Shown: positions 21,556 through 49,475, counted from the whole stretch's first letter. The stretch is 60,268 nt of DNA, filler included, from Hausera hauseri (GCA_046269625.1; 10 parts of 10 records of this genome joined end to end with filler, not necessarily neighbours in it); one strand, 5' to 3'. The notes: generated from the sequence alone by a model not told the origin. Program-made: numbers and translations.

Positions 21556-23629
21556 TTACCTACTTTCAGAAATCATTGAATTTATTTGATTATATTCTAT
21601 ATCATCATTATCAGGTATACTATACGAGGATTCTTTCATGTCTTTTCTTTGTAGAATTTTCCTTTTCCATAGTGCATCGTGGTTTGCTAAAAAACAACTT
21701 GCTACTGCCGGTATTACAGCTATTAGGACTTTCCATGAGCATCCTACTGCTGCATGTATTCCATATATCTTACCTAGTGCCATAAATACTGTCTTTATGG
21801 TGCTAATAATAAAATATAAAGCCAAAAAACCGGAAGCTGCTTAACCGAAATATAAGAACTTTTCAGACATCTTCTCCATAACGTTTTTGTTACCTTCTTT
21901 AAATAGTCTTTACCCATTAGATTTTCCCATTGTGGTGATCTTTCGCCATCCCACATTACTCTCCTGGTTAATTCTGTTATAACTCTTTGTCTCTGTTCGG
22001 GGAATAATAGCATGCGCCGACAATCTTCTAGATTTTGTTGGGTATAAATTCCTCCCTAAGATATTTCTGCTAACTGTTCAAATTTTTGATTCTTTGCAAA
22101 TTAATTAAACTTAATGTCTCTGGCTTCGGCACTGGCTCTCTTTTTAGCATTCGGATCCATTTGCCATTATCGATTTTAAACATCGGCGACATATTGAAGG
22201 TACAATTATATAGTGGAGTAGGTTTCACGTTAATATCCAATAGTATTCGGGTTACTGGCATCACGTGTCTCGCTTCTGTGTGGTAAACTACTGGTAATTC
22301 CAGTGTACATTCATCCGTTAGTGTAATTGATACCTCTACTTTTTTGCATTCTATTGTTATCAGAACCTCACCCATCACTCGTCCGATAATACCGTCACCG
22401 AAAGGCATTACTGGCGCTACCATATCTGGGTTTGTTATTACTAATGCCATTTTATTACGCATTATTTCGTAATTCAACTTGCATTCGTTCATTACTATTT
22501 CTCGATACAAACCTCTAATTTCCTTCCTTACATAATTAATTAGAAAATCGATCTTATTATCGAAATATTGTGCTAACTTGATATTTTTCTTATTTATTTT
22601 AGTTTTCGCCCCGGGTATTTCTTTTCTCGATAAGAAAATACCCTCATAGTTAGTTTTGATATTTATTCGCTACACTTATTTGCTACTCCCGTGATTTTGA
22701 ATCGCATCATTTCTTCTGGATTTTCCGAATATACAATTGTAGATATCTCCATCATTTTGACTTCTTTTGTTCCTTCTTTATATGTTGCTGTTTCTTTTTT
22801 CGCCGTTTTTCCTACTGCTTTGTTAAACTTTTCTTCCTTTAACAGTGTCAACTGGCATTTACTTGAAGAAGTTTCTCATGTCATTTTTGATTTTCCAGTA
22901 TCACATTCGCCATTATCATATTCGCACTCACTCATCGTCGTCATCAATTTTGTTTGTGAGTCGAATAATCCTTCATATTCTTTCAACTGGATCTGGTAAT
23001 CTTCTATGGCCACTGTTCTAGGCGCGATGGTACCTCCAACGTCATAATCTACTCCCTTACAGGTGCTTCCGTTGTTTTATTTATTAATCCTGCCCTGAAA
23101 ATCCTAGTATATTTTATCCTATGTCGTACTGCAGGTATATGCGCGCTTTGTATAGTTATGATGCCAATCTTAAAAACGTCCTGGCATTCTGCTGGTGATA
23201 TTATTATTGGTTTGAAAGGTGTTGTTGGCTCGATTATGGCCGAATTTCTCGAATAATAAGCACAATTAAACAGGAAAAATGATCCTTTTACGTAACATTC
23301 CCTGATTTTTGCTTTATAAACTCAGATTCTTGGTATACCCAGTATGTAAGCCCACCTGTAGTTGTTAACTGTTCTAGATCGGCCTCTGGACATTTCTTCA
23401 AATCTACTAGGGAGTATTTCTGTCCTTTGCTAGGTTTAGAGCAATCGTAAGCTACTATACCTACAGATTTCGGCATCAATAGCGACGTTATTAGGAGAAT
23501 TTGAAGAATTTCCATCATTGACATACCTGTCATGCCTAGTCTAGAAACGTTTGGTTGCATTGCAGTATGTGTATTTACTAATCTTTCTCGTTCTCCTGAC
23601 CTCATTATATTAGTCATTGGGCTGTTCAA
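21556..23629 (-). pseudogene. Env: chuvirus-type / herpesvirus gB-like (class III) fusion glycoprotein, full length but disrupted
   Basis: Signal peptide then IVAYDCS..YSLVDLKKC; LYREIVMNECKLNYEIMRNKMAL..PD..GRVMGEVLITIECKKVEV..ECTLELPV..PVTRIL..PMFKIDNGKW; GIYTQQNLE..MLLFPEQR; C-terminal hydrophobic ASGFLALYFIISTIK..GCSWKVLIAV. Confidence 0.85.
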
Positions 23630-23746
23630 CCATCCACCTCTACATTGAGCCCAGCTTCCTAGTGTATCCTTTAAAATCTTTAAGGATGTCTTTATATTTC
23701 GTTCGATCTCTTCTAGATTTTGAGTCTGATGATTAATTACTATTAT

Positions 23747-24970
23747 TTAATAGAGCAGGTAAAATATAGCCGTTTGAGCTTTCTCTCGTGTGATCCCTGT
23801 TGCGAATATCTTCTCCAAAATATCTAGCTCAGGCAGTTCGTTTATTCGTTCTTTGTCTAAATTCTCATAGAATTGTCGATTTATTCGCAGCATGCTATTA
23901 CGTAACGTGTTGAATAGTTCGTCGGGAATTATTGTCTGCATGTCAAATGAGGCAAATGACGTATGCCGCCTAGCCAATAAAGTTCTTAGTAATGGATCAA
24001 TATCCACCGATTCGGGTGTGCCATTTGTTCCTGCTAGTAACAAACGTCTTGCTATTTCTTCATTTCTATCTTTCCTATTGCGTATATCACTTATTTTTGT
24101 TCCTCTCGGCCTACCTCTTCTCTTGGTCTCTGTCTGAACTGTGATGTCTTGTGTATCACCCATGGGGTACTCTACTTTCTGCGGTTCCATTTCCCTTAGG
24201 ATATTCTCCACTGTTGTCTGTGCTCTTGCCTCTGGATGTATTTTGGTTATCGTTATTGGATTGTAGTTCTCACTTCTACATCATATTCTCAGTAACTTAT
24301 CGTAATTATATAGTGTTCTTCCATAATAATTTAATCCATAAGGACTATCTTGATAAAAAGTCTCAAACTCCTCAATCTTTTCTCTTAAAGTTTGTACATC
24401 ATCTATTTCGTTCATCCTGATGACCCTCATATCCTGGTTTCCTTCTTTTACCGTTATTCGTATAGCTTCATTCCTGCCTTTCTCATCTTCTGCGGCTTTG
24501 GCCAATACTGTCCTGGCTATTTTTTTGACAGGACTGGCATCTTGGGCTAATAATACCAACTCAGGTAAGATTTTTTTCATTCTTTCTACCGTTACATTAC
24601 TAGTGATTATCTTCAATATCGTGGTAGTCGCTTTATCCACATCGATTATATTACCAGGATCTACAGCCAATACTGCCTGAATGATATCCTCCTCCTCGTC
24701 TAAGTCTACCCCTGGGTTCCTTATTATTTGGTCTAATATAGTTTATCAATATTGGTGTAGCTTGAGGTTCATCTTCGTCCAGTGAGGGTTTACTAAGGTT
24801 ACTCTTCGTTCTTCCTTTTTCTTTTCTTTCACTACCTCTTCCCTCTCTGTTGACGTCTCTCTTGATCCAACCTTTGCGTCAATTATTTTCTTATTACCTT
24901 TCTTCCTTCCTTTATGAGATGCTCTTTTTTCTGGTTGATCTCCTATCATGTATGTATTACTCTCTTTCAA
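23747..24970 (-). pseudogene. Unknown charged/coiled-coil region between gag and env, with an AT-hook-like motif
   Basis: Same-strand ORF fragments 24746-24970, 24281-24670 and 23747-24211; KRRGRPRG motif. Confidence 0.5.
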
Positions 24971-25189
24971 TTTTTGCTGTTGTCTTTTATACTCTTAGTT
25001 CTATTTCCAATTGTTTTTTATGTGTTGAGGTAGTCTGTCATTTATATAATTGACACTTTATTTCTTTTTATCGTTTTTCTTAACTTCTGGTTCGCTATCC
25101 TCCGTTTCATATTCTCTATCCGATGATTCGTCTGACATAGCTGATGTGTGATCCTTCTTTTATTTATTTTTATTACTTGCTTTTGAGGG

Positions 25190-26030
25190 GTCTCCTCTAC
25201 GTGATCTACATGATTTCGCTATATGTTCATATATATATTACAATTAAAACATTTCAATCTTCCTTCGGAATTTATTTTAGGTAATGCCCTTCCATCCTTT
25301 TTGGACCTCTTCTTATAACTCATTTTCTCTCCATCGTTTCGTAGATTAAATCTCACTTTCTTTTCTGTATCTTATTCAGCTTCCGTGGCTGACGTTTGTG
25401 ACGGACTTCTACTTTTTTCATAACGTTGATACTTTTAAGAACTATTATTTCTTCTTCTGTCGTATCCAATGTTATTATAATTAGACTTGTTCCATGTATA
25501 CAGTTCTGTATCTGGTTCGGCCTTTCGCGCCTTTCTTATTGCTTCCTGAAAAGTAGGTGGGTCTGATTGTGAGATTATCGTCCTTAATCTTTCGTCCAAT
25601 CCGTATTGAAATTGAGCTAGGAGCGCATTATTTCTTGTAGTAACGTCTGGATATGCTCTTGGTGCGAGTTTTTTCAATGCACAGACAAATTCTTGGATGT
25701 TTCATCTTTACGTTGCCTCCTTCTTATAAACTCTTCAATTCTCCCCTTTCCAGAGGGATCTATTAAAAACTTTTCAGGCAGTTTTTCTTTAATTCCCTTC
25801 TAGTCCTTCTTGTCTTCATCGGGCATTTGAAAATAAATCATAAGGGCCGTCCCATTTAAATTTATGGGTAATTTTTCCATTCTTTGCTTATCGTCCCAGC
25901 CAAAACTTTTGGAATAGACTTCATATTCTTTCATAAAATCCTGTATATCTTCTTTGCCCGAAAACTCTTTCATCGGTAGGGTGAAATCAGCCTTCGACTG
26001 AATCACCTGCTCTACGTTATGATTCGCCAT
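25190..26030 (-). pseudogene. Ty3/gypsy gag (capsid + CCHC zinc knuckle), disrupted
   Basis: FSGKEDIQDFMKEYE..GWDDKQR..LPINLNGTA; LKKLAPRAYP..QFQYGLDERLR..PPTFQEAIRKA; knuckle KCFNCNIYEHIAKSCR at about 25200-25260. Confidence 0.85.
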
Positions 26031-26157
26031 GGGTTCGTCCTCACTTAAATTTCTTAGATATTCTAGTCCGAAAGGCTAGTCTTTTTGTGGTTGGTAAACT
26101 GTTCCTCTTCTTGTGGTAATGGTGATACATTTTTAATCCAAAGGTCTTCAATCAATG

Positions 26158-26176
26158 ATCCCGGGTCACGGCACCA
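26158..26176 (-). promoter_or_regulatory. Primer-binding site complementary to tRNA-His, just after a 5' LTR end
   Basis: Minus strand ..TTGAACA aac TGGTGCCGTGACCCGGGAT, about 130 nt before the gag ATG. Confidence 0.85.
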
Positions 26177-26960
26177 GTTTGTTCAATCCTCACTAATTAG
26201 ACCAAAAATGATTAATTTCGTAATTTTGCCAATTAATTGGAAAACAATTTTTAGTTATTGTATTTCAAGATTGGGATATCGTGAGCTCTTACCTAGGTGA
26301 TAGTAGGTAATGTGTTACAAGCCAGTAATTTATTTTGTTTCTTACTCACCTAGGGTTTAATATCTTATTTATTTATTTAAATTTAGTTGGGCGGTCGTCA
26401 GGTAGCTTTAACCTGGTCGACCAAAATTCCAAATTTAAACACGCTTAATTACTTATTTATTTTTACTGATTCAAATGAAATATAACTCCAAGAGTAAGGT
26501 GACCAATATAATTAAACCAATTATGAGAATTTATGATACAAATCAAATTACGAGAATACACACTTACGTGAAGTCATTAAAAATATCGTTGTCAGAAAAC
26601 TCAATGTATCAATGTTCAATTCTTTCAGTTCTTGTCACCAATTATATATCCTTTATAGTCAAATTTTATTACAAAATTCACCATGGTCACAAGATAAAAT
26701 AAGACAATCATTAACAGTAATGTCGATGTATGAAACATAAATCGTGAACGATATATACACAATGAGAATAATGTAATTTTACAAATACCAAAAACGACAA
26801 CAAAAGCGGTATAATTACTAATTCAGTTAAACGTCATTGTTTCATACATAATTAATTTGACGACAACAATGTTTCATACATAATTAATTCGCTATTGTTT
26901 TGCTATTGTTTCGCAGTTCACAGATTTGACCGAGTTTGGAAGAAAATTGACCCAAATTTA

Positions 26961-27723
26961 TTAATCTTTCGGGAGGGGCATGTGGATGAATTTGTCGGTC
27001 GTTCTGGATTTGTATCCGATAGATTCAGGTTTGAACACTTTATTATCCACAATAATGGTTTCATCCACCTGGAGATGTCTTTTTCTGCCACACTGAGATG
27101 TAGTTGGTGCTGTTCGCACCCCTTCGGAAGCCGCACTTTTAATTATTAATTCATCAGTCCATTTCACTTGTTTGTACAACGATTGGTAGTACTGCACTAG
27201 GGCAGTACTACGAAGAAGAAACCCTTTTGTATCGTAGAATTTTCTGGCTAACTCTTTGAAAGTGCCCGTCACTAGCTGATACTGGCGAACAATTTCCTCA
27301 TGATAAAGAATGTCGCGGATTCCGGCCAGCCGCCGGATTGGGCATTTGAAATGATTTACTACCATTTCAATGACGTCGGCTACGATTACAATCTTGTCCG
27401 TCAATAATTCAGCAACCTTGCAATAGAAGTCCGGTTAGGTACGTTATGTGCGTATCAAAGTTGTTGATACGCTGTTTTTGGGTGATTATGCCATATAGTA
27501 TCGTGTCCCCGTGCAAAGTCATAATTGATGCCTCGATGGGTTTGAGTTGATTCCATTGGTCATAAGCCAAGTTTACGGCCGCTATGACCATATCACTATT
27601 TGTTATTTTATCGATTCTTCGGAACGGAATACTTTTATATTTAACGTAGTCCGGTTCTGGACGATTGAAGCATTTTCCTTTGGGCAGGCTTGGGCGAAAT
27701 TTCTCTTGCTTTATTATTTCCAT
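26961..27723 (-). pseudogene. Pseudo-DEDDh exonuclease-like cargo domain (split by a frameshift near 27405)
   Basis: IAAVNLAYDQWNQLKPIEASI..ILYGIITQKQRINNFDTHITYLT and KIVIVAD..PIRRLAGIRDIL..TFKELARKF align to the same domain in the 711-aa ORF. Confidence 0.65.
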
Positions 27724-27833
27724 TGCAAAGATAATTCGGTTAGTGTTGGAGCGGATTGTGAATGTGTTTGCGTTAAGAAATGTATGGTCGAAAGAGAGAC
27801 CATGTTCTACGTCCAGGCTGATGAGATCTCCTT

Positions 27834-28247
27834 TTACGGATGTTTTTTATCGGAGGTTTTAACTTGCAGTTGGCCAGTAACACAATAGAGATTCATGGAG
27901 TGAAAACGTTCATGTAGAATCAGTATGTCGGAAAGATAGAAGGAAATAGCCTTTGAAATTTGCATAAGGGCAATCGAACGATTAGCCATACTGTAGCTCT
28001 TTAAGTTATTTGGGATCTGTTGTGTTTGTGGATAATTAAGACTGATTGTAGTATCGTTGTGGCTTCTATAATATTGATTGGAGGGATTTGCGTTTATCAC
28101 GTGATTCTTTGCATTGTTATACCAATGCTTTGATCGGTTAATCGTCTGGATTTGGTGGAACGTTGATGAAGATACTATAAAAAACAAAGTCAATATGATT
28201 CCATACACGGTATTTAGACTCAACACAACGGTTACCATACACATCAC
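27834..28247 (-). CDS. Hydrophobic-leader ORF of unknown function inside the cargo region
   Basis: N-terminal hydrophobic stretch MVTVVLSLNTVYGIILTLFFIVSSS; same strand as the flanking cargo. Confidence 0.35.
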   Translation of the reverse strand: MMCMVTVVLSLNTVYGIILTLFFIVSSSTFHQIQTINRSKHWYNNAKNHVINANPSNQYYRSHNDTTISLNYPQTQQIPNNLKSYSMANRSIALMQISKAISFYLSDILILHERFHSMNLYCVTGQLQVKTSDKKHP

Positions 28248-28360
28248 TACGGTAATCGTTATGGTTAACGTGGGGTGAACTTTTAGACTAAAGAAAACCA
28301 GTGTTATTTGCTTATCTCAGTACTTAGGGTTGCGTTGATCGCAATCCCAATATCTAATTG

Positions 28361-30070
28361 TCAGCTGGGATTGTCTGTATCTAACGGATTCGTTAGATCA
28401 CGCATGTTAATTATAACCCAGCTTTGTCTGCTCCGTTTACATAGCGAGAGCGAGACTTTAATTACTATTATCAATATTACTATCAGCACTATGGGAACTA
28501 ATGATCCGATTAGTATCATCTCTAAATGAGAATGTTTATATGCGGCTCGGGAGGGTTTGCTAGTTACTTTGTTACTACTTGTATTGTTCTTATAATTCGT
28601 TTCACTCTTACGACTCTTCTTTGTAATTGCCGATATTACCTTGGTGGAAGTTATTTTATCGCTATCGTCCAATAATTGTAGAACCACCGTATATCTTGTG
28701 TCAGGGTTTAAAGCTGGGCATGGTGCTATCAAATAATCCGGTGTTATAACTTCCTTTACTACTATTGTATCTTGTTTCTTACAAGTAAATCTAATTTTTA
28801 TAAAATCTAACTCCGGTCTAACGGATATGATTAAAGCAGTCGGAGCTGCTATAAGGGTTACGTTTTCTCATATAGAGCGCTTTTGACGATAATAAGACGT
28901 GTAAGGTCTGACCATAATAGTCATTTCGTTTTTATCGGTCCAGAATTGCACCGCTGGTGTCGTAATCTTTTTCTGTATGTCATCGTATTCCTTTTGATTG
29001 TTAAATCGTATAAACATTGTTGGTCCTATTCGCTCTATTGGGTACTCAAATTTACCGTTCCTTCTCCGAAATAAACGATAATAAACGTGATATATCTTTC
29101 CCGGTGTAACCATACAGCAAACTCGTCGTTGAATACCTTTTAGTCTGCAGACTAAAATTTCTGAATTTATTGTTCCTAATAGTTTTATTGTCATTCGTCG
29201 ATTTTCTTTTAGTTGTATCATCGTTATTATCTCTATGCAACTTCGTCCACTTTTAAATCCCATTGATCTAGCTATCATCTGGTTAAATATTTTTTCATCT
29301 AGTTGAGTTTTGTTCATCTGTTGCCTAGTAGGAATCACTATTAATCTATAAAATTTTGTTTTCCGGCTTTTGTAATAATCTCCTTGTCTCTTTATAAGTT
29401 TAAGATATATATAATGGACACCTGAACCTTGTACCCTGCACTGTGTTTGGTTGGTATCTGGGTGAAATAAGCAGTTATATTGTCGCTCGCTGGGGTCTGT
29501 TTGATTATCATTACACGGTATTATTTGTATCCCCATTATATATATTGGGGGCATTCGTTCTGGTATACTCCAGTTTATCACTTTTTGACCTTTTTCTGAG
29601 TATGTAAATCTGTACTGTAGGTTCTTCATTAATGGGTCTTCTGTTATGGCTATTGCGTGCCGTATTTTTGCTCTTTCAATCTCTTTATTCGTCATTTGTC
29701 TAATCACTTCAGGAAATAACAAGAAGACACTTAATAATAGGTACCGCATTAACCAATGAGATCTATGAGTTGGGTTTACCTTGGCTGCTTTTTCATTAAC
29801 ACTTAGTACTATTTCCTTTTCACCTTTTCTTAACTCGCTTTGTTTGGGAGCCGGCTTGCATCTATTGACGTGAACCTTCACAGATGTATTAGTTTTCATC
29901 AAGCAAACATTCGGTAAATCCACTTTCTCCACTTCATACGGCCCTTTGTAGTGCCTGTCCAACTTGGACGTTTTACCCTTTTTAATTGCAGGTGAGTATA
30001 GCATCACTTGGTCGCCTGCCTTAATTTTTGGTTGTCTGGTTTTCTTATCGTAATACTTTTTATATTTTTT
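28361..30070 (-). pseudogene. Gypsy integrase C-terminus fused in frame to signal peptide - FN3-like ectodomain - TM (one in-frame TGA at 28868-28870)
   Basis: KKYYDKKTRQPKIKAGDQVMLY..SKLDRHYKGPYEV..VHVNRCKP, then WLMRYLLLSVFLLFP, CCMVTPGKIYHVY, CPALNPDTRYTVVL, TM MILIGSLVPIVLIVILIIVI. Confidence 0.8.
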
Positions 30071-30159
30071 ATTAAATTATACATAAATGCCTTTTAGAGG
30101 ACAATAATGTTGCTGGATTCGAACGTTCTAATATTTCGATCTTACTAAGATCTTCATCA

Positions 30160-30259
30160 NNNNNNNNNNNNNNNNNNNNNNNNNNNNNNNNNNNNNNNNN
30201 NNNTTAATTAATTAANNNNNNNNNNNNNNNNNNNNNNNNNNNNNNNNNNNNNNNNNNNN
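30160..30259. other. Artificial contig linker 5
   Basis: Same 100-bp spacer. Confidence 0.99.
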
Positions 30260-31607
30260 TTCAAATTTTGATTATTGTTATGATTTTCAACAAAGTGACA
30301 GTGATATAAGAGTAGGTAGAAGTGAGGATGATGAAAATGTTCCGTCACATGCTGGGATCCTTCAAATGCTACATCAAATTTGTCTCCATCTTCTCAAGCA
30401 TTCTTCTTCTGCGGATCACTTTTGTCACTTAGACTATTTGCAATTTTGTGTTACTAACGCAGCATTTAGCAGCAAAACACAAACGACTTTTGATAAAATT
30501 TTAACAATCGACTGATTACCTTTCTCTACTGAATATTGTGTTGTATCTGTTGTCCTCTAAACTCTACAAAGGAAATGTGCTGATTGTCACTTCAGTTACT
30601 GTTAAGCTTGGATTGTGAATCGATTATAGCGATGGAAACAAGTCAGTACAGCTGCGTAAAGTGTGCAATTTTCAAAAAATCGATTATAATAAAATCAGTT
30701 TGTAATAAATTTTTTTCTGGCAAAAAGCATTTTATTATATCCAGAAGTTATTTTAATTGCCTTTTATGAATTTTATTATGCATGAAATTAAATGTGCTAC
30801 ACATGTGGGGTATGAATATTTCAGTTGAATGAAAAAAATGATATTTATAATTTCGAAATCTAATATCTATGAATAACCATGATTTCCATGTGGCACACAC
30901 AAACACACACGCAGTAGAGAGGTATGTGAAAGGAATACCAAAATCCATCGTAGCTTATTGTATGACTGAAATCAATACATGGCTTCATTCGCGCCTGATT
31001 AAATGTCGCATCTAATTTGTCTTCATTTGAAATCCAAGCCCGAGTATCACAAAAGTCAGTAAGATTACACAGTCAAGTAGGACTACGATTGCATAAGTCT
31101 TTGACCTAAAAACATTCCTTTTGTTGTGTCCAATAAACATTGTTTCTGTGAAATTACATAATGTTTCTACTCAATCATAAATAAACTGCCTTAATATTCG
31201 TTATATCAATTTATGTTACAAAACATGCAGAACAATCGGATTTACTCAAATGGAATTTTATTCACTGTATATAGCGTATACACTGTGTGTGAATTGAAAT
31301 TAGGCAGACATATTATTTTTAGATCATGAAATTCAATTGACCAATGAGAAAGTAGTATTGGCGTTGGTAAAACGTATGTCACATGGGCAGAAGATGCCAT
31401 CAAATTCAGATTTATTTTTATATGTTAGATAAATAATATGCTGGGCAAGTTTCTGAGCTAAATATAAAAATTTATTATCAACTGTCACTTTTAGTCCACT
31501 TCAATAAAATATGGCATTGAATATTTTCATATTATTATTCATTCATTCGTATTTCATGTTATTCATTCGATTTACGTAATAAATACCAATGACATTTTAA
31601 CTTTTAG

Positions 31608-36442: not shown

Positions 36443-37012
36443 AAAATTGGGGGTTCCAAAATAAGAATAAAAATAAAAGATATGCACACATTGATTACAG
36501 AATAAAAGTGAAAGTGTACGAAGATAATGCAGAGAAGAGAGTAAGAATATATACAATCATGTTATTCGAATATCAAGTTAATTCAAAATCAATCGATTGC
36601 TATCGCATTGGAAGTTCTATGATTCAATGATCCAGATCAACATTTTCATAGGATATTCTGGTATTGATGAAGTCTTCTTTACCTGGTTTGTCTCCTATAT
36701 TTGATCGTTCTATAGGAATCAAAGTCGGCTGGGTGTTTTTCATCAATAACAAATATTTGAGATGACCATTGAAAAAGGTTTCGGTTAGTGATTGGATTGT
36801 CGCAGTCACAATCAATTTGGTTCTTAACTTGGTGTTGAACTTGACTCCGAAATTAACGGGTAATTTCAACACTGTCAAAACCGTTAGATGCGGTACCATA
36901 AAATACTGATTATCTGTATTTTGATAAATTGCTCCAATAGGTGTGTTCCTTTATGTGTTCCATTTGGCAAGTTTTTTTGCCGAAATGGTTTGTCCCATGT
37001 AGTATGGTGCGT

Positions 37013-38100: not shown

Positions 38101-38155
38101 TTATAGTAGTGTAAAAACGTCTGTTCTTTCCCCCCCGGGGGTCGCGAGAGGAATC

Positions 38156-38255: not shown

Positions 38256-38275
38256 ACTTATCAGTCACGTATTTT

Positions 38276-38540
38276 TTAAAAATGTGAAGTTAATATAGTC
38301 TTTGCTCCAAAACTATAATCTATTGGTTTTCCTCCATAATCACGAATATTAACTTCTATTTTACTTATTCTTGTTAATGAAACAGGCAAATACATTGGAT
38401 TAGTCGGAGCAATATATACTGTATCCCCATATTTGAATTTTGAACCGTCTACCCAAACACATCTTAACAGAGGAACTCTATCTGATCCAACCATTGTTGG
38501 TTCAACTATACTCGAATAGATGTATTGTTTATCCGGCATT
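38276..38540 (-). pseudogene. Polinton/adintovirus minor capsid (penton) C-terminal fragment
   Basis: YIYSSIVEPTMVGSDRVPLLR..PMYLPV..ISKIEVNIRDYGGKPIDY..TSHF is the typical single jelly-roll penton C-terminus. Confidence 0.75.
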
Positions 38541-38924
38541 ATAAGGAGATAACATAGATCAAACGATAGTAAAAACAGCTTCTTGAAGACAATCATTTTG
38601 TATTTCTTGTATTATTTCTTAAATTCAAAAAAACATCAATAAATCCATTTTTGTATATACACATACACATCCATATATACACGTAGATACATAACAAGTT
38701 GTAGGTAATGCAACTAATGTCTTTAGAAATCAGTTTATCTATTGGTAATTATCGTTTCATTCCAATATTGTCATATATAAACAAATTGGAATAACAATAT
38801 TCATTGGAATTGTCATTCAATCATGTTGTCTCATTGAAAGTCCAAATAGTAAAATACTGAAAAACACTATAATACAAATATGTATAATTACTAGAGCTAC
38901 ATCAACTCGTAAAATTTTTTAAAT

Positions 38925-41900
38925 GTGTAGCCATATGGCGGGAAAAATCTCGTCACTCATCTGCTAACCCCTCCAGTGCAACCACATTTTAGGTATTACA
39001 TCACCCCCGTGCCAAGATAAAGACTGTAAAGGGAAAAACAAACGCATGTGTCAGGCGTTGGATTCCATCTATAAATTTCTCCCTACTGTAAGTACTAAAT
39101 GTCACATGACGTGATCAGTTAGATGTTTCTGGCGCTTGTGGAGTTGTTTGAGGGAGAGATGATGCAGATTTTGTGGTGTTTTGGGAGGATGTTTTATGAA
39201 GATGTGAAAATGGAGAAGAAACTGAGAAGGGAAAATGGTCACGCGAAGAAGGCGAAACTGAAGATGGAAGCGAATCGTGCGATAAAGGTCACACGACTGC
39301 AGGCTGATTGTGTGGATGTGCAGGCGATGACGGCGAAGTAAGTGGTAAAAGAACAGTAGACGGAAGTGAGCATAACTAATTGTGACGTGTGAACGATTGG
39401 TGCGACGGATCAACATCATCGAGGAAATTGGATGATGGCTCGAGGGGGAAAAAGTTACAGTTAGGATTTGAAACAATGCTGTTATCCTGGTCATCGTCAA
39501 CGAAGAAATCTGGCTTAAGATTAGAAATGTGTACATTTTGAAGTTTGGCCTTTCGTAAAATAGTAGCGGTGTGAGAAGAAAGGTTTAGCAGTGTGTAAGG
39601 GCCAACGTATTGAGGCTGAAAACCAGAGAGTGACGGATCCTTAAGCTACACAAACTTGGCTGAGTATAAGTCCTCTGGAATATAGGATTTGTCTTTATTT
39701 ATAAGAAGGCAAAATGCGTTTGAGTTGATATCTACAAAGTGAGACTGTGCCGCACGAATAACATCATCTGACAGACTTGGATCGAGATTGGAGAGCTCAA
39801 AACGGCACGAATTGGTGTCCCAAAGAGAGCAACAGCTGGAGCACAACCTGTGGTGGTGAATGGCGTGTTGCGCCAACCACGTAGGACAAGCGGAATAATT
39901 GAGGTCCAGTTATGATTGCTGTTTGCCAAGATTTTCAAAGAAATCTTTATGGTGCGGTGAAATCTCTCAAGAAGACCATTTGCTTGGGCATGGTGCGGCA
40001 TCGTATGGAAATGGGCTATCCCCAAGTGATTTACAAGAGATTCAAAAAGGTCAGCTTCAAATTGAGGATCCTGGCCCGTTATGATGTGACGTGGTGAACC
40101 AAAATGGCTGACCCATATCTTGAGAAATGCATCTGCCACAGAGTCGGTGATGGTTGATCGAAGCGGAACGGCTTCCGGCCAGTGAGAAGCTCGATGCATC
40201 ATTGGTAGGTTATATTGATAGCCGTTGTCGGATGGCAAAGGACCCACAAGATCCAAATGAACGGTGTCAATAGAAGACGTGCAAGGAAAGTGATAAAATG
40301 GAGGTTTGAGATGTTAATGAATCACAGTAGGGCACCATGGGCACCACAGTTGACATGCTACACATCCCTTAACCCTGACATGTACATCTGTACACATAGT
40401 CGGCTATACAACATCGCACTGCTGTAGACGAAATATAGCTTTTGAATCCGGATGATAGAGTGAAAGTGATTGAAAGCTGTCTTTGTAGCGATGGAGCAAG
40501 AATGATTTGCTTGCTGGTCGAGTTGGATGTGTCATAAGCGATGCCATCGATGATTTCAACAGATTTAAAAGCTTGAAGAATGTCAGATGATGGCTGATTA
40601 CTTCTTAGGACTTCAGATGAAAAAATTTGCTGAACTGTAATTGAAAAAAATAAACTAAACGTGGATAAGTATGATATCTGTCGTTCTTGTCTCGGCAATG
40701 GATGATTTAACGTCATTATATGAAGTAGAGGCATATGGTCGGTTTGGATGGTAAATTGTCGTGACAGAAGCAAGTGCTTGAAATGCTTTACCGCTAGAAC
40801 TACATCCAAAAGTTCACTATCGAATGTCGAGTATCGACTTTCTGGTTGCGTGAGCTTTCAGGAATAGAATTCGAATGGTTCATCGGCACCATTATATATT
40901 TGGTATAATATCGCACCAGTGGCTGTGGTGGAGGCATTGTAATGAATATTAGTTCCGCGTTGGGTTTTGGAAAGGCCAAAATTTCAACGGTTTTCAGACC
41001 TTCACGAAGGCGATCAAATTGATTTACTAGATCGGAAGTCCAATGGATTAATTGTCTTTTCTTCCCAAATGAGAAGTGTGCAAAAGGTGCCGTTAGTTCG
41101 GAGCAGTGTGGCACGTATTTGTGTATGAAATGCAATGTCCCTCGAAAACTCCTCATATCGGTAGTAGTAGTTGGCAAGGTCACATTTTTTAATTGTTGCA
41201 AACGATCAGGCTGGGGCGAATGCCCTTCGGGGGTACTTATGTGGCCTAAGAAGTTGACGCGTTTCTGGAAGAAATTGCAACTGGCGAAATTAACTTGCAG
41301 GTTGCCTTGACGCAATCTGTGAAAAATAATTCTAAGGTGCTCATGATGTTGTTGGATGGAGCTGTAAGCGACTAATATGTCATCTATGTATGGGTGAGCA
41401 AAATCGAGACCGCAGAAAACGGTGTCAATGTGGCGCTAAAAGGTCTGGGATGAGCTACGCAAGCCGAAAGACATGAAGATGTATTCATAAAGACCAAATG
41501 GTGTGATGGCAGCAATTTTTGGAATGTCATCATGGGCATCAGGAATTTGATGGTAGGCTTTGTGCAAATCAATGGTAGAATAGGTATTGGTGTTGTTGAG
41601 GCTATAAAGAATATCATTAATGAGTGGTAGAGGATAGGCATCTGTAATAGTTAGATTGCTTAATTGTCGATAGTCGCCACATGGCCTATATGTGCCATCT
41701 TTCTTTACCACTTCATGAGGAGGAGAAGCCCAGGGAGAAATCGATTTCCGAATGATGCCAGACCTTTCCAGTTCATTAAATTCCTGTTCCACAGCTTTAC
41801 GTCTGCGTGGCGACAAAGGTCTGACCTATTGTTTGATAGGTCTCTGATGGTCTGTTACTATGTGATGATAAGTTGTGGATAGATGCTTGATATTGACGTC

Positions 41901-43400
41901 CCTTTTAACTATGCGAAAGTAAAAACGTTGTGACGTATGATTTAAGATTGGAGTATAGAGACAAGAATGAATGAGGCATATCATTAAAGCGAACAGCTCC
42001 AGTGATTGACGGAAAGCAACTGGCATCGCTACTGTCGACGCCTAATTTAAATTTTTGTTTTATAATAGATTTATGATTATCGTTCATAATTGAAATATTT
42101 CCGACTTTATTGGAAGTTGTTTTATAGATGACGAGGCGTTCAACATGTTCACAGATGAGTGCAATGAATTGCTCTCTAAGTTGTCTACGAGACACATGTT
42201 TGGAGTTGCAATCGAGTTCCTGCTTAAAAGACAGCTGTATTTTCATTCGACCAATAGATCATATGCGGCAAGAAAATCTAAGCCTATTATGGGAGATTTA
42301 ATGTTGGCCACGTGGAACTCCCAGACAAACTTATCTGGCAAGTTGGCGAATATGAAAGTCAATTCTGTGGTTCCTGCAACGTGCAACGGTTGACCACTGG
42401 CAGTGAAAAGCGATGGACAGGAAATCATAGTCGATGTAGGAACGAAGGAGCGGAAAGGCAGCTCCTGAGTCTATCAGGAAGTCGATATGTGAAGTATCTA
42501 TGCATAACAGTGCAGCTTTCAACAGAAAGACTGCAGAGGCGGTGTTGAAACGGCCAGAAGATTGAGCGATATTGCCTGCGCCAGAAGGTGCCGTAAAATC
42601 TGGCGGCATTATTAGTTTTTTGAGGGATTTGGAAAAAAGGAAGAAGAAGAAAAACGAGGGGATTTATCATTGTAATGTTTACAACCAGGCACACATAATC
42701 TAGCCTTTGACTAAAACTTATTGTGATAGACGCAAATAAGGTTGTCCACAGCGTACCTGTCGCTGTAGAACCGACAACCCAAAAAGCATTTCCCATCATC
42801 CCTTCGAAAGCGCGTGTGATAGAAGCAAGTCATGCGTCCTCCAGGTGAAATGGATCGAGTAGAGTGTCTTAAAGTGCTTCTCTCCCTTGAAGGTCTAGTT
42901 TCTCTTCGTCGAAGCCCATTAAGATTATTTAATTGGGTAGTAATGGCCGAAATGGACTTCTGTAACTTGTCAAACTGTTGCTGCATCATTTGCAATAGTT
43001 AAGTAAAAAATGTTGTGTCTGTAGTTGGAGCACATGTGGTTGCAGCCCAATAGGAAGAGAACTGTTGGTATGAAGAATCTCAAAGGATTTGTCAGCCATT
43101 ATTGCCATTTTTTCGATAGCAGTGAACTCGTCGACAACTGTGAGCAAGGCTCTGATTGAGGTGGGCAAAGATGATGAGAAATAATGGCAAATTAAATCCC
43201 CTAGAGCGCTATGCTGCAGAATGGCTGTTTGGAGAAAGTCGGATGGATTTTGGCTTCCTATCGCGTGGTCGTTAAAATGCTTTTGCATTATATTGTCAAT
43301 CGAAGGATCTGTGACATGCAGCACAGCTTCACAGAGTGTCTCGTGCTGTATCGAGGATTGTAGCAAGTAGGGGGAAGGGAGGACACGAGGCCAGTATAAA
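38925..43400 (-). mobile_element. Decayed Ty3/gypsy retrotransposon, CsRn1/Kabuki-like (gag-PR-RT-RH-INT, PPT, LTR start)
   Basis: Gag CHCC-type motif CFYHTRF..KCFLGC; protease FLIDSGA; RT SPWASP..RPCGDYRQL..DAYPLP..IDLHKAYHQI..TPFGLYEY..FGLR; RH TDHMPL; INT DLVGPLP..WPEAVPL..QANGLLERFHRT; YVGPY; PPT GGGGGTGA then TGTAAT at 39000. Confidence 0.88.
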
Positions 43401-43438
43401 TTTCCTATCTCGAGGACCCCCCAGGATTGGAAATCAAT

Positions 43439-43560
43439 AATCAATATTTTATGTAGGAAATTTTGGCCTCATATTGGTTTCATTATTCCAACCCCCAAAA
43501 AATCAATATTTTATATGGGAAATTTTGGCCTCATAGTGGTTTCACTATTCCCACCCGAAA
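43439..43560. repeat. Two-copy tandem repeat of about 62 bp downstream of pPolB
   Basis: AATCAATATTTTAT..GGAAATTTTGGCCTCATA..GGTTTCA.TATTCC twice; its tail also occurs at about 10762. Confidence 0.75.
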
Positions 43561-43680
43561 TTTGATATAAATACGCCTGCTTAAGTGTCACTTGTGAAAA
43601 ATGTGTCAACATTGACATGTACAAAACATAAGACAAAGACGTAAGTACAAATATGTATTAAAATAACAAATACAAACAAC

Positions 43681-43864
43681 CAAATATTTACACAATAATG
43701 TCCATAGGCGACACTTTTGTTTTTCGATATCCAGTCTCGTTTGTCGTCGAATGGATCTAGAGCTTTCTTTTTGGTACTCATCGTCATCAGTTGATGGTTC
43801 TTGGTCCCAATGCGTTCTTGATCAACAATTGTCCCACATCTATTCTCATACGCTTGCAAGTAGT
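43681..43864 (-). pseudogene. Polinton/adintovirus pPolB extreme C-terminus (contig-truncated)
   Basis: QERIGTKNHQLMTMSTKKKALDPFDDKRDWISKNKSVAYGHY. Confidence 0.85.
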
Positions 43865-43964
43865 NNNNNNNNNNNNNNNNNNNNNNNNNNNNNNNNNNNN
43901 NNNNNNNNTTAATTAATTAANNNNNNNNNNNNNNNNNNNNNNNNNNNNNNNNNNNNNNNNNNNN
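43865..43964. other. Artificial contig linker 7
   Basis: Same 100-bp spacer. Confidence 0.99.
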
Positions 43965-44850
43965 CGAAGGAATTCAGGGCCGAGTCTTAGGAGAAGTGCT
44001 ATATACATACAAATGTAAACGATTAGACTTACCCCTGATTACTGGTACTCCTTGCTACTCTGAGATACCTGTTAAGTATAATGAAGAAATCCGATACGTT
44101 CAACCGATTATCCGAGTAATTCTGACACCACATACAATACCCACGAAAATTCAAAATTGTTCAGCACTAAATGAACCATTTATTAAGTACGACAATCAGG
44201 ACCTTTGGGTTAGATTACCGGACCGTGAAAGAGTTAAAGAAACACCTAAGAAATTGACGATGGCAAATTTGAAACATGCAATTGAAACCAATATGTTTAC
44301 GGACGTGTCCAAATCCGCATTATACAGCAAAAAAGAAATTGATTCATTCGTGAAGTTTCTAGCATATCCTCGACAGAGAGAGCAAATAGTAAATCGCGGA
44401 ATATACCGGGTAATCGACGACACAGCCGGAGAAAGAAAATGGGACCGGTTATGGACACCTGACGCCTATATTAAAATCGTTTCAAATCTGTGGTATAAAA
44501 TGTGGGGCGGATTCCTGAAATTCGGCCAAGTAGCTTCTGGGTTTCTGGCCATATACTTTATCGTACAAACTTTGAAAGCCTGTATCAATTCCATATTAAA
44601 TGCCTATGAGATTTACAACTTAACGGGACTATCTCTAAGTATAATAGGTGCTCTATTTTGCCCACTTGGTAAAATCATTAAAGCTTACTATGAAAAACAA
44701 TGGCGAGGTAAACTAGAAAAACATGTTGATTATAAATCGAAAAAGCCTTTCCAAGGGATACCCCGTCAAGTTCCGATAACGACAACGCCCCTGGATATTA
44801 TCCTACCACAGGGATTACAAAGGATACAAAAAGAAAATTCAGGTTTATGA
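43965..44850 (+). CDS. Env: C-terminal half of a chuvirus-type / gB-like fusion glycoprotein (5'-truncated)
   Basis: GRVLGEVLYTYKC..CYSEIPVKYN..QPIIRVIL..ALYSKKEID..LAYPRQRE..KMWGGFLKFGQVASGFLAIYFIVQTLK; paralogous to 21556-22510. Confidence 0.85.
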
Positions 44851-45379
44851 AACCAAAATGGAAAAATAGACCTAAATCACTTGTTGCGCCATATGAGAAT
44901 TAAACAGTGCCAATTTGCAGATTACCAATATTAATAGACCTAAAGGATCCATATGGAAAAATGGAGGAGTATATAAAATTACTTAATTTACCAAAATACT
45001 CCCAGGAAGAGATACGTCAGTTCGTTATCACGCGAAACATGGAAAACAATTGTGTAATATTACCTACATCACCTAAATTAGGCATACCGCCTCTTATACC
45101 TTATCACAAAACAACTCGATTATTGAAAAATCAAGTAGATAGAGAACCCCATTTAACGACCTCAGAATCCGTTAGTAAGCAAAACATAACATTACCACGT
45201 GGAAGTTGCTACCCAGACTTGACTGAACTCAAAGAGGAAGAGAAAGGAGTGGAAAACAATGCTCAATCTTTAGAAAGTTTAGCGGTTATATTATCAACCG
45301 ACACTATCCGATATTGTTCAGATAGTTACAGCTTGATGGAACCACATATAGGTAATCATAACGATGTATTAACGTTTCT

Positions 45380-48300
45380 CGAGTTGTTACGGGATAATCG
45401 ACCTCACACCATAGTTTACTTTGATAGCTTTGAACTGAATTCTATGGTTGACACTGGAGCTAACGTTGCATTAATAGCAAAACATGCAATTCCAAAAGAA
45501 TTACAATCTCAAATAAAATTGGCTACTAAAGGCTCGCCTGGCACTACTTTGGCTTTTTAGCAATGCAGTAAACCTTATGGATACTGGAAAAGTGAACCAT
45601 ATATTTTTGGACAGAGAGTCAAGAAAACCTTTGATGTAATGCTTACCTAGGATCCGCGATGCATTTTGTGTATGAATGTGTTGCGAAAATTGGAAGGAGT
45701 ACACATAAACTTACAATCGGGATCAATTTGTCCAAATAATGAAGATATACCCCCTAATTATGCCAGAACAGATATCTGGGTAGGACATGTTGAGAAAATA
45801 CCACCCAATTCTAGAATGGTTATACATGCCAGAACGATATTCTCAGACAACAGCGTAATTGAATTTGTGCCGAAAACTCTTCAAAATGGGCTTATATTAC
45901 CACATTACTGCGTTAAAGTACTCGGTGGTACCATTCCCCTAGAAGTTCTAAATCCCACTCCAAGACGTGTCACGATATTCCCTAAAACGAAAATTTGACA
46001 AGCACTGGAAACTACACGCCAAGAAAAATACAACAATAAAGTTGTGACCATTTCAACAGCGGAACATAATAATGTTGAAGCCACACTTAATGTCGTTCTT
46101 ACTAAAGTCAAGAAAATTTTATCAAATGAATATCTAAGGAATTTCTCAGACCTCATTTGTCAGTACCTTGATATTTTTGCAAAAAACGAAACGGATATCG
46201 AACGAACAGATTTGGTCAAATTTAGATTGCCATTTATGCTCGACCCCACAACCGGAAAAGAGGTAGATCTGTTACAACAATCCATACCAAAATTGTACCT
46301 TCCTCCAAAAGCACTCCAAAAGGAAGTTGAGGAACAAATTCAGGCAATGCTCAAAAAACGTATCATAGAACCAAGTCAATCACCATGGCCCTCTCATAGT
46401 TATGGCCAAGAAAGCTAATACAAATAAACATCGCCTGTGCGTAAATTACGTCACCTTAAACAAGCACTTAATGAATCATGCTTACCCAATTCCGTGAATA
46501 CGAGACATCATTGATGAACTAAAGGATTGTAAATATTTTACCACATTGGACTTACAAAGTGGGTTTTGGCAAATTCCCGTAGCTGAATAGGATCGGTGGA
46601 AAACCGCATTGAAAACCCATACAGGGATCTACCAGTTCACACGCATGCCATTTGGCTTAAATGCGGCACCCACTTTCTTCCAACAGTTCATTCGTCTAGT
46701 ACTAAAAGGAGTGCGAGGGTTATCGTACATTGACGACATCCTCATTGCGTCCAAAACATGGTCTGCCCATTTAACAAAATTGAAGGAAGTATTCGACTGA
46801 ATCAGACTTGCTAAATTGAAATTAAACCCAAAAAATGTGAATGGTGTAAGAAGGAGGTTAGATACCTGGGAATTGTCGTTTCCAGTAAAGAGATATATAC
46901 CAGCCCTGAGTTAGTAACTAAAATACTGGAATACCCCCTCCAACCAATGTGCATGAAATGAAAGCATGGTTAGAATTGGTAGGATTTTATGCCGCCTTCA
47001 TCCCTGACTGCAGAAATAAATCAGCCTCAATATAGGTTATTACGGAAAGACCAAAAATGAGAATAGACCGAAGAGAACCAGAACATTTCGATGAAATTAA
47101 AAAACGAATGGTGTCATCACCAATATTGAGGTACCCAGATTTTTCATTACCATTCATTCTAAAAACCGACACTAGCATTAAAGCTATTAGTTTTATATTA
47201 GCTCAACAAAATCCAGAAGAAATAACTCAGTATGTAATCGCCTACGGCGGACGTAGCTTGAATAATGCAGAGCAGAAATATTCAACTACTATTAGCTATC
47301 CGTGACGAATTGCGACATTACGAATATTATATCTACCGTCATAAGATTATAATATTTACTGACCATAAGGCACTATTATCTTTACGCTCAGACAACAGAC
47401 ACGTATCAAGTCGACTCCAAAGATGGAAGTTGGAACTTTTGAATTATGATCTCGAGTATCGATATCGTCCTGGCAAAGAAAACATGGACTCCGATGCTCT
47501 GTCAAGAATGCCATACGAAAGAATAGTAGCCGCAGCTTATAAATCAACCGATAACGAAAGTGATAAACATCTGAATGAGAGAATCATTAATGATGTTACA
47601 AGAACAACGCCAAATCCAAATACGAAATATCGAGACCTTACAAAACCAAGATCCCTTTATTGTTCAAATCAAACAATTAATCAATGGGCAATTAGTTGAC
47701 TCGGCATCAAATCACATTCAAAAATTTTATGAAAAGAACCGAGTGAATTTAGAAATCGAAAATGGCATTTTACGACTGAGAGTCGGAGAACGAAAACTGG
47801 CCATGGTGCCGGCACCGGCCATCAAAGCCGTCATGCTACAAGAACATGATTCACACTTAGCTGGACATCCGTCTTTAAATAAGACTTTAAAGCGTATAAC
47901 CGCTAAATATTATTGGCCTCAAATAAATAAACATATTGAAGGATGGGTACGTTCATGCAAAATGTACGCTACAAGAAAAGATAGAGGATTTCGTATCAAA
48001 CCGTTTTAGGAAGCTTACCTGAAGCTCGTAAGCCAATGGAATTGTGCGCAATGGACATCTATGGGCCCTTCCCAACTTCGGACTCAGGATACAAATACAT
48101 ACTGTCGCTTGTTGACTACTTCGCTCGTTACGTTGTACTAGTACCATTGAAAAACATGACTAGTAGTACACTTGCTGAAGCCTTTTTCTATAAAATTATT
48201 GCCGTACTGGGCACCCCGAAACAGTTGTTGACTGATCGTGCACCTTACTTCATTAGCGAGCTCTTTGAAAAACTATCAAAAATATTCCAATGAAAACATT

Positions 48301-48900
48301 TATTAACGACATCATACCAATCTCAATGTAATGGTATGATCGAAAGGATGAATCGTACCATTCAGGGTATTCTTTCTACAAAGGTAGCACAGGACCAAAA
48401 AGATTGGCTCAATCATCTGATAACTACGGCTTTCGCAATCAATACTACACCTACCAAAAGTACAATCATTCCCCTTTTGAGTTAATGTTCGGACGAGCGC
48501 CTTTGATGACATTGGATACTGAATTACTGCCATCTTCCTTGTTAAATAGTGATCATATGGATGAACAGTACCAGAATTTGCTTAAACGTCTTGAATAGTT
48601 TCAACGCGAAGCAAAGGAGTTTGAAGAGAACTACAGATCCGGATATAAAAAGCAATTTAACAAAAAATCACGACCACATACTTATAAAATTGGAAATTAC
48701 ATAATGGTCCATTACCCCGCGGCGAAGAAAGGCAAATAGTTAAAATTAACACACACAGGCCAAGGACCGTACAAAGTTGTCGATGTGCGCCCACAAACAC
48801 TTTTTATTCAGAAAGGGCCCGACAAATACGAGGCTGTATCTGTTCAACGAGTAACCCGAGCACCTACTCCATACAACGATTTCATACACGAAACAGATCT
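45380..48900 (+). pseudogene. Ty3/gypsy pol (PR-RT-RNaseH-INT), disrupted
   Basis: MVDTGA; IIEPSQSPW; LDLQSGFWQI; RMPFGL..YIDDILI; YPDFSLPFILKTD..AEQKYS..TDHKAL; HDSHLAGH..YYWP; MDIYGP..VDYF..LLTDR..NGMIERMNRT; GPYKVV. Confidence 0.93.
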
Positions 48901-48949
48901 TGAAATACCCAAAACGGGAAAACCCAAAATAGCAGCAATGCTCAAAATT

Positions 48950-49475
48950 CAACCGATGAGTAACTCAGAGCATTGCCCCGTCCACTTCATTTTTAATAAA
49001 CACTTAGGTATCTTCATCCTCCTGTTCCTCGTTCTCTTAATATTTATTACGGTTGCTGATACCAGCCTAGATACCACAAATACACCATACACTGAATTAA
49101 TTGAATGCGCTACGATTATCAGTATAGATATGCATAAACCCAGTATTTGCCTTCGGACTCACCTGTAATGATACACCACACGGTTGATTTTGTCCTAGTG
49201 TCGCAGCATAACGTCTCTGTTTGCACAATCCTCGAAATGCGTAATAAAACCTGCTGCTACGTCTATTATGTTCGGACATACACGTGCTATGTAATATTGA
49301 AAGTAAACAATACCAATACTATTCTTTGGGAGCCAAATATTATTCTTCACGTCCCTACTTACCGGGAGATGAACTTAGTGGAAACTTCTGATGTATTTTC
49401 GCCAAACCCTTTTATCGCTCGATTCCTGGAATATAATATTGAAATTTCTAATGTCGATCTCACAAGACAACAGTA
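48950..49475 (+). pseudogene. Post-integrase cargo: signal-peptide-like segment and Cys module (3'-truncated)
   Basis: In frame with the integrase tail: HLGIFILLFLVLLIFITVA; after a frameshift VCTILEMRNKTCCYVYYVRTYTCYV, resembling the CC-V..Y module of contigs 4 and 5. Confidence 0.65.

Follow-up and report, generated by a model that had tools for sequence, protein, structure and literature searches.

The window, a stretch of 60,268 nucleotides from Hausera hauseri (GCA_046269625.1), holds decayed pieces of Ty3/gypsy retroelements in which an envelope gene (env) of the gB type stands between gag and pol, and in which further coding modules stand behind integrase. It is made up of ten contigs (contig 1, 1-4965; 2, 5066-11129; 3, 11230-16134; 4, 16235-20599; 5, 20700-30159; 6, 30260-38155; 7, 38256-43864; 8, 43965-49475; 9, 49576-55098; 10, 55199-60268) joined through artificial spacers of the form N44-TTAATTAATTAA-N44, and contigs that are adjacent in it are not genomic neighbours. 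Six of them (contigs 2, 3, 4, 5, 8 and 9) were assigned to this Ty3/gypsy reading by the first-pass annotation. A DNA comparison found no similarity among the six, and all links between them are therefore at the level of protein or motif. The region 21556..49475, which the first-pass annotation had put forward as the element, does not delimit it, taking in contigs 6 and 7, which are not members, and omitting contigs 2, 3, 4 and 9.

The gag-env-pol core

The 5' part of an element is preserved on the minus strand of contig 5. A probable long terminal repeat (LTR) or leader at 26180..26922 (-) has an uncertain start, with TG candidates at 26922, 26868 and 26802, ends in AACA and contains two splice-donor-like sites (26349 and 26292). 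It is followed by an 18-nt primer-binding site (26159..26176, -), recognised from its sequence and lying 130 nt 5' of the gag ATG; a 12-mer of this site has its sole exact match within the window here. The decayed gag (25180..26030, -) comprises a capsid-like region and a CCHC remnant, the Pfam match to Ty3_capsid (E 0.003) being below the cut-off. Next comes a spacer open reading frame (ORF) of no assigned family (23560..25000, -), forming a single frame with the env signal peptide (5 stops in 570 codons); no family match was found in the 417 spacer codons tested, and the last 60 codons before env returned nothing relevant. This spacer ORF, of about 480 codons, is a candidate matrix-like or accessory protein. 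The env (21556..23518, -) encodes a Monjiviricetes/gB-type fusion glycoprotein and is broken by stops and frameshifts, five pieces matching PF24664 (Monjiviricetes_fusion) in order, the best with E 3e-27; no pol follows it on this contig. The succession of primer site, gag and env previously proposed for contig 5 is thus upheld, apart from the tRNA-His label of the primer site, which is a presumption, the window being without any tRNA gene.

Contig 8 continues the succession on the plus strand. It opens within the C-terminal half of an env with its membrane anchor (43966..44850, +; PF24664 E 6.5e-38), which is 38% identical to the env of contig 5 over 109 residues. Behind it lies a decayed pol (44904..48860, +) with profile matches to an RVP protease (E 0.005) and a reverse transcriptase (E 1e-25), then to RNase H and integrase; the landmarks are the protease DTGA at 45450, the reverse transcriptase YIDD at 46726 and the integrase GPY at 48764. 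The order protease, reverse transcriptase, RNase H, integrase, which marks Ty3/gypsy elements, is therefore present. A possible dUTPase-like segment at 45741-45995 has no Pfam match, and 17 of its residues match a gypsy protein (P0003) at the same position (E 0.006). With gag joined to env on contig 5 and env to pol on contig 8, env stands between gag and pol, the three not occurring together on one contig, and the gag-env-pol order with a PF24664-type env is sound.

The best database matches to the reverse transcriptase were 34-42% identical, and those to the integrase of contig 8 were nine generic gypsy proteins at 30-41% identity, two of which (P0003 and P0007) were scanned with Pfam and contained no env or cargo family. 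For env, no PDB sequence match was obtained, and none of 1371 candidates among longer database proteins was a relative of the contig 8 copy.

Predicted membrane-protein modules behind integrase

In all three copies that preserve the end of integrase (3/3), the GPY motif is followed in the same frame by a hydrophobic stretch, 67 codons on in contig 5, 80 in contig 8 and 51 in contig 2; the intervening frame is free of stops in contig 5, free of stops from before GPY in contig 8, and interrupted by stops in contig 2. The contig 5 copy belongs to a piece upstream of the LTR and comprises the C-terminal (GPY) region of integrase (29850..30076, -; 36% identical to the integrase end of contig 8, E 5e-6), an in-frame signal-like stretch (from 29755) with an ectodomain carrying a Cys/FN3-type module at 29260-29005 (28871..29755, -), and a further beta-rich unit with a transmembrane (TM) helix at 28528-28433, placed by hydropathy (28364..28867, -). 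The last unit is FN3-like by eye only and has no PDB sequence match. In contig 8 the signal-like hydrophobic stretch lies in the frame of the integrase end and is followed by a Cys module at 49138-49360 (48989..49475, +), so that, together with the profile matches to env and pol, the order env, protease, reverse transcriptase, RNase H, integrase, signal peptide and Cys module claimed earlier for this contig is reproduced. The corresponding part of contig 2 has the integrase end (GPY) and the hydrophobic stretch in one frame, with stops (5066..5272, +).

Contig 4 consists largely of a single frame of 1354 codons with one stop (16237..20298, -). It encodes a signal peptide (19941), a duplicated ectodomain whose halves match each other with E 3e-23, Cys/FN3-type modules at 19749-19473 and 18399-18126, two clear TM helices at 18744-18655 and 17016-16927, and, behind the second helix, ankyrin repeats (E 5e-15; about 16700 to the contig end). 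No relative of this ORF was found among 1.84 billion representatives, and the ESM Atlas returned three rows below 0.9 for its ectodomain, one of them a herpesvirus US glycoprotein at 0.77, to be taken as a lead only.

The Cys module, with the pattern C...CC.V....Y, occurs after the signal stretch in contigs 5 and 8 and in two copies in contig 4. A strict regular expression for the motif gave zero matches, and the relationship was instead traced with held-out profiles, the best non-self match being the expected one each time: a profile of the contig 5 and 8 copies found those of contig 4 with independent E-values (iE) of 0.002 and 0.016, the two contig 4 copies with that of contig 8 found contig 5 (2e-4), and the contig 4 copies by themselves found contig 5 with iE 0.064. 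When modelled by AlphaFold from a four-row alignment, the Cys module alone folded with moderate confidence into a seven-strand sandwich (predicted local distance difference test, pLDDT, 57-75 per ten residues over most of residues 51-120). Among the top structure matches of model residues 46-141, FN3 domains (those of cytokine receptors, CD45 and fibronectin) predominate, in tied rows with Z 7.5 to 6.2 (best match Z 7.5, root mean square deviation 3.0, 87 aligned), although Z values below 8 may mean a common fold only. Because the modelled sandwich best matches FN3 domains, the Cys module is probably of FN3 type. In a held-out profile search the membrane-proximal FN3-like units of contigs 4 and 5 did not find each other; the description of contig 4 as FN3-like and TM modules plus ankyrins consequently stands for its ankyrins, two TM helices and Cys modules, and not for a kinship of its FN3-like units with those of contig 5.

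Nuclease-like block, RING clusters and 3' ends

The tail of contig 9 runs from an acceptor-like site at 54989 and an ATG at 54984 through an intact 683-codon ORF (52936..54989, -), in which a cupin-like region (about 54500-54190, -) precedes a pseudo-DEDDh exonuclease region (about 54084-53640, -), to a polypurine tract (PPT; 52781-52769), an LTR from 52768 and a second LTR head at 52080 (52080..52781, -). The second head (52080-52059, -) shares 21 of 23 bases with the first, lies 688 nt behind it after a TA/TG microsatellite, and represents either tandem LTRs or a duplicated head. On contig 5 the equivalent ORF, cupin-like by eye with a pseudo-DEDDh exonuclease, is frameshifted and has no PPT behind it (26964..27989, -). 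Contig 2 is heavily decayed and carries an acceptor-like site at 6988, a cupin-like block, a pseudo-DEDDh block and a RING domain at about 9062-9190 (6971..9200, +), followed by a PPT and then TATTG, the probable start of an LTR (9400..9420, +). Contig 3 has a 5'-open ORF with two RING-type Cys clusters, a PPT at 12377-12389 and an LTR from 12390 (11230..12400, +).

The exonuclease-like block is common to contigs 2, 5 and 9 (held-out iE 4e-5, 1e-3 and 7e-6, respectively). In contig 9 it resembles DnaQ, matching TIGR01406 (E 4e-4) and two further models, phrog_192 (E 0.003) and a PDB DnaQ entry (E 0.2); four independent models match residues 366-476 of the ORF with E 4e-4 to 0.02. At what we take to be the ExoI motif position, contig 9 reads S-x-A, contig 5 N-x-A and contig 2 N-x-G, and in the alignment of the contig 9 block with DnaQ an Ile stands opposite the Asp of ExoII; the catalytic D-E-D-D/H residues are not kept in any of the three contigs. 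Given this loss of the ExoI and ExoII acidic residues, the block is predicted to be a pseudo-enzyme, if the DnaQ assignment holds. The block upstream of it is common to contigs 2 and 9 (pairwise E 6e-4; whole-window iE 0.08-0.26) and was not found in contig 5 in the whole-window profile search. None of 7999 database candidates was related to the contig 9 ORF, and the ESM Atlas returned nothing for the nuclease.

The RING of contig 2 was recovered with E 5e-6 as a half domain (21.4 bits against a cut-off of 21), and the second Cys cluster of contig 3 matched RING PF00097 with 21.7 bits against the same cut-off of 21, its first cluster having no profile match; contig 9 is without RING. The three PPTs of contigs 2, 3 and 9 have a near-identical pattern. 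In contigs 3 and 9 the tract is followed by TGTT, two such occurrences being seen against 0.06 expected in 200 shuffles, and in contig 2 by TATT rather than TG. Short tandem repeats of 16-38 bp lie just inside all four LTR starts (26835-26889, 12397-12485, 9539-9580 and 52451-52526), with sequences unrelated to each other. Contigs 2 and 9 therefore do carry, as first described, a pseudo-exonuclease (with RING in contig 2) followed by PPT and LTR, the LTR of contig 2 being a probable one, and the RING and PPT-LTR ending of contig 3 is retained, with a profile match for its second cluster and TGTT behind its PPT.

Signals that might serve the splicing of this part were also seen. Within 250 nt ahead of the primer site of contig 5 there are two donor-like sites of the form AG/GTRAG, and 0 of 5000 shuffles gave two, although the splice-site tests were made post hoc, once the sites had been seen. 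A pyrimidine tract with YAG stands ahead of the nuclease ORF in 3/3 copies (contigs 2, 5 and 9): in contig 9 it is separated from the ATG by 4 nt, and in contigs 2 and 5 it precedes one and the same AVN motif by about 600 nt; the acceptor-like site of contig 5 has a T-rich tract (28175..28192, -). A second TM helix of contig 5 was rejected as certain protein, the hydrophobic stretch being in part this T-rich tract.

One lineage or several

The modules overlap in the same order from one contig to another. Contig 8 runs from env through pol to the signal stretch and the Cys module; the upstream piece of contig 5 runs from the integrase end through signal stretch, Cys module and TM helix to the nuclease; contig 2 runs from the integrase end through a signal stretch to nuclease, RING and PPT, and contig 9 fits its end. 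This chain of contigs 8, 5 and 2 supports one element type in which env and tail occur together, and with it the idea that enveloped Ty3/gypsy elements carrying cargo downstream of integrase form a family. It does not imply one fixed gene set: contigs 3 and 4 have a loose connection with it, and the tails vary among copies, with RING present or absent and one or two membrane cassettes. The suggestion that all modules tile into one element is accordingly kept for the chain and is no more than a possibility for the whole cargo. The copies share no DNA similarity and are taken to be a family rather than one locus; the 38% and 36% identity of the env proteins and the integrase ends of contigs 5 and 8 speaks for their kinship. 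Three spans, of 4.6 kb from the primer site to the stop of env, 3.9 kb from there to GPY and 4.3 kb on to the PPT, sum to an element of about 13 kb plus LTRs, a length that holds for the contig 2 type of tail (12.9 kb) and would be exceeded with that of contig 4. Such an element is long, as had been supposed, and yet no giant, being under half the length of the planarian Burro.

Abundance was gauged in sequencing run X1, possibly the window's own sample, whose Logan contigs do not reach far enough to connect one module with another and whose depth is not copy number. Matches were found to 21,012 Logan contigs on contig 5 and to 10,230 on contig 4 (4.4 kb), most being less than 95% alike, and contig 4 is therefore a repeat and not a single host gene. 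A 137-codon ORF upstream of its cassette (20189-20599, -) is also repeated in X1; a 5' ORF of contig 4 was tried as the end of a pseudo-nuclease and rejected, having no profile match. Over contig 5 the X1 depth was 3,500-25,000 across gag-env and 390-1860 across the tail. At the integrase end (29864-30159) the depth rises to about 270,000, far above the rest of the contig, probably through many other gypsy families having that stretch.

We consider it reasonably probable that the six contigs hold decayed copies which all belong to a single abundant Ty3/gypsy lineage, its gB-type env placed between gag and pol, and which likely share a variable tail behind integrase. The tail is predicted to encode FN3-type surface proteins with a membrane anchor and also, probably by way of a spliced RNA, a nuclease that is catalytically dead and is joined to a RING in some copies.

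A number of observations weigh against this reading. The window, whose contigs measure 4-9.5 kb, contains no complete element, no contig with two LTRs and no target-site duplication, only single LTR ends. At the env-pol border of contig 8, env closes in a stop and pol opens in another frame, possibly through decay, so that a single env-pol polyprotein is no more than a possibility. Contig 3 shows no protein similarity to the other contigs and is tied to them by its ending alone. Contig 4 has no gag, pol, primer site or PPT, that is, no retroelement hallmark, and its tie to the family is through the Cys module only and is weak (held-out iE 2e-4 to 0.14); the alignment boundaries of that module were cut by eye, and the profile of the two contig 4 copies with contig 5 reached contig 8 with iE 0.14 only. 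The AlphaFold model that contains the Cys module has a mean pLDDT of just 38.9, the single-sequence AlphaFold model of the nuclease was likewise of low confidence (31.5), and the cupin-like label, given by eye, found no database support in Pfam or in a PDB sequence search. The six element strands together hold 15 acceptor-like tracts where chance would give about 18, which is no enrichment, and contig 2 has four acceptor-like sites and no in-frame ATG soon after the one ahead of its nuclease. The junction in contig 5, finally, contains no purine run of at least 8 and hence no PPT, and its LTR start is unclear; it is consequently read as a deletion or a nested insertion, and a regular tandem array was rejected. 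The neighbouring copy that had been recognised on contig 5 thus keeps its module order (integrase, FN3-like, TM, pseudo-exonuclease) and loses its standing as a regular tandem neighbour.

Several of these facts are what would be seen if the six contigs represented two or more unrelated element types, with the ankyrin/FN3 cassettes of contig 4 and the RING ORFs of contig 3 drawn from other repeats and the tiling a chimera. The contigs share no DNA similarity, contig 3 has no protein link and contig 4 a single weak one, and contig 5 joins its two pieces without a PPT, at a junction where the X1 depth drops to 67-377. Set against this are the overlap of contigs 8, 5 and 2 in the same order, by integrase end, signal stretch, Cys module and nuclease block, and the likeness of the three PPTs, and we hold a chimera to be improbable; it would apply mainly to contigs 3 and 4. 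It is still less credible, indeed very improbable in our judgement, that the tail is neutral captured host DNA without a role in the life cycle of the element: its modules keep their order across copies with just 22-30% amino-acid identity, they have no detectable host relatives, and ORFs of 994, 721 and 382 codons have been kept open, with one indel site listed among the X1 copies on contig 4.

Other sequences in the window

Contig 7 was considered as a family member and rejected, being an ordinary gypsy element without env: its decayed gag-pol (39100-43470, -) has a reverse transcriptase about 36% identical to that of contig 8. Decayed pieces of a DNA polymerase B-like gene, which we take to be of Polinton type, lie at 1380-4230 (-), 10800-11128 and 43558-43864, the same 329-bp piece ending contigs 2 and 7 in copies that are 84% alike. 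Behind the LTR of contig 9 are a LINE fragment (50870-51300, -), presumably RTE-like, and a 44-bp tandem repeat (50202-50377). Contig 6 ends in a transposase relic (36620-38155, -), presumably piggyBac-like, and also holds a duplicated, probably exonic module at 31637-32086 and 35021-35480 (+), the copies being about 45% identical. Contig 10, with a GC content of 46%, carries a low-complexity Ser/Arg-rich open frame of 1662 codons (55199-60184, -) with no Pfam match, likely one large host exon.

A possible life cycle

If the tail belongs to the lineage as proposed, the genomic RNA would be translated into a long polyprotein that, going by the known topology rules of the endoplasmic reticulum, would cross its membrane repeatedly, so that gag, the spacer, pol and the ankyrins would face the cytosol, and env and the FN3 cargo the lumen. 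Host signal peptidase and the protease of the element would cut this precursor and leave env and the FN3-type proteins on the surface, where the latter would most likely either mediate attachment as partners of the fusogen or mimic receptors, the ankyrins of the contig 4 type forming a cytosolic docking tail. By joining the donors of the leader to the acceptor of the tail, splicing could yield a separate pseudo-nuclease protein, with or without RING. The pseudo-nuclease would most likely bind RNA of the element or host silencing factors, and its RING-bearing form might be an adaptor through which a bound host factor is ubiquitinated. The action on cell surface, signalling, RNA and ubiquitin pathways that the first-pass annotation ascribed to the cargo is thus conjectural. 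For RNA binding by dead DEDD proteins there are examples: Maelstrom and EXD1 are described as binding RNA in piRNA pathways (PMC5408684, in the section consulted).

A bolder version, which we regard as rather unlikely, would make these elements an invertebrate "complex retrovirus". Their polyprotein would extend past integrase into FN3-type surface proteins, serving as attachment partners of the gB fusogen or as cytokine-receptor mimics signalling via ankyrin tails, a spliced pseudo-nuclease/RING protein would counter small-RNA silencing by ubiquitination, and gag-env-pol elements of flatworms would generally have tails of this kind, missed so far because searches ended 3 kb after pol.

How invertebrate retroelements of the gB type choose and enter cells, and how they outlast piRNA silencing at high copy number, is an open question, for which surface proteins of the tail and a dead nuclease-RING protein would be concrete candidates. 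If conserved, such a tail would present an independent parallel to the accessory genes of vertebrate retroviruses.

Comparison with known systems

The core layout has precedents. According to the available text of Chary and Hayashi (PMC13524379), an env of the HSV/gB type only, in the arrangement GAG-ENV-POL, is found in errantiviruses of nematodes, bryozoans and flatworms, and the chuvirus type of env is linked to the gB type. The present elements resemble these in gene order, in their chuvirus/gB-type env and in being multi-copy LTR elements of invertebrates. They differ in a coding tail of 3-4.3 kb or more behind integrase, where that main text describes no genes and does not contain the words "ankyrin", "exonuclease" or "accessory" (PMC13524379). 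As the report's account of its methods has it, LTRs up to 14 kb apart were sought only 3 kb beyond pol, and no LTR or primer site was found for 8/9 flatworm elements (PMC13524379); this would be the expected outcome of long tails, other causes being possible as well.

The planarian Burro is the other close counterpart in layout. As far as its published outline goes, its mononegavirus-like env likewise follows gag and precedes pol, and it has a dUTPase-like segment as well as ankyrins and RING-type motifs (PMC6431247). There is an appreciable chance, if below even, that the elements described here are relatives of Burro or else of the Smed errantiviruses with GAG-ENV-POL layout already published, with 3' ORFs that were drawn but never annotated, which would make the gene set new in name only; such an account is compatible with the lineage favoured above. 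The outlined order of Burro, namely gag, accessory domains, mononegavirus-type env, protease, dUTPase-like segment and reverse transcriptase together with ankyrin and RING-type motifs (PMC6431247), speaks for it, as does the want of LTR or primer site within the 3-kb limit in 8/9 flatworm elements, which a long tail would cause (PMC13524379). Against it, the BIR, BCL2, MATH and SUMO-like domains of Burro precede env, and none of these was found here between gag and env in the 417 spacer codons, which match no family; the distance from primer site to env stop is only 4.6 kb; and no relative of env or cargo appeared among database proteins. Burro and GYPSM1 share with the present elements the position of env, ankyrin and RING-type cargo and very high copy number, the dUTPase-like segment being weak here (PMC6431247). 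In the description available, Burro exceeds 30 kb (internal region up to 25 kb) and has its BIR, BCL2, MATH and SUMO-like domains on the 5' side of env (PMC6431247), and by that description it is set apart from the present elements, which have a short unassigned spacer before env and their cargo behind integrase. FN3-type membrane proteins and a dead DEDDh domain are not among the components listed for Burro in that outline (PMC6431247).

Searches of database proteins, viral contigs and metagenome contigs found no relatives of env or cargo, PDB sequence searches with the element proteins returned nothing significant, and no account of this 3' tail was found in the open-access literature. An unannotated or Repbase-annotated equivalent of the tail may already exist, since Burro sequences and Repbase entries, like Grohme 2018 and Sacco 2022, lay outside the comparison. 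To speak of a new system, as the first-pass annotation did, is in any case too strong: gag-env-pol elements with a gB/mononegavirus-type env have been published (PMC13524379, PMC6431247), Burro has ankyrins and RING, and rotifer elements have a DEDDy nuclease (PMC5408684), so far as the portions of these reports drawn on here extend.

The rotifer LTR elements in question, Juno and Vesta, are reported in part of PMC5408684 to carry a DEDDy ORF3, a nuclease of the DnaQ superfamily that lies downstream of pol, as in the elements of the window. Their nucleases keep the catalytic residues and take the place of env, whereas the nuclease-like block of the present elements has lost them and occurs alongside an env (PMC5408684). 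For an accessory protein made from spliced RNA there is the precedent of CERV, the product of a 3' ORF of the C. elegans element Cer1 that is needed for export of the genomic RNA (PMC10309623, in the part used). Cer1 and the present lineage, both gypsy elements, would thus each express an accessory ORF at the 3' end by way of a spliced RNA, as demonstrated there and proposed here, and CERV is not described in that part as having a nuclease fold or RING (PMC10309623). The gag-env-pol core is hence already known from these systems, and it is the 3' tail behind integrase for which no description was found.

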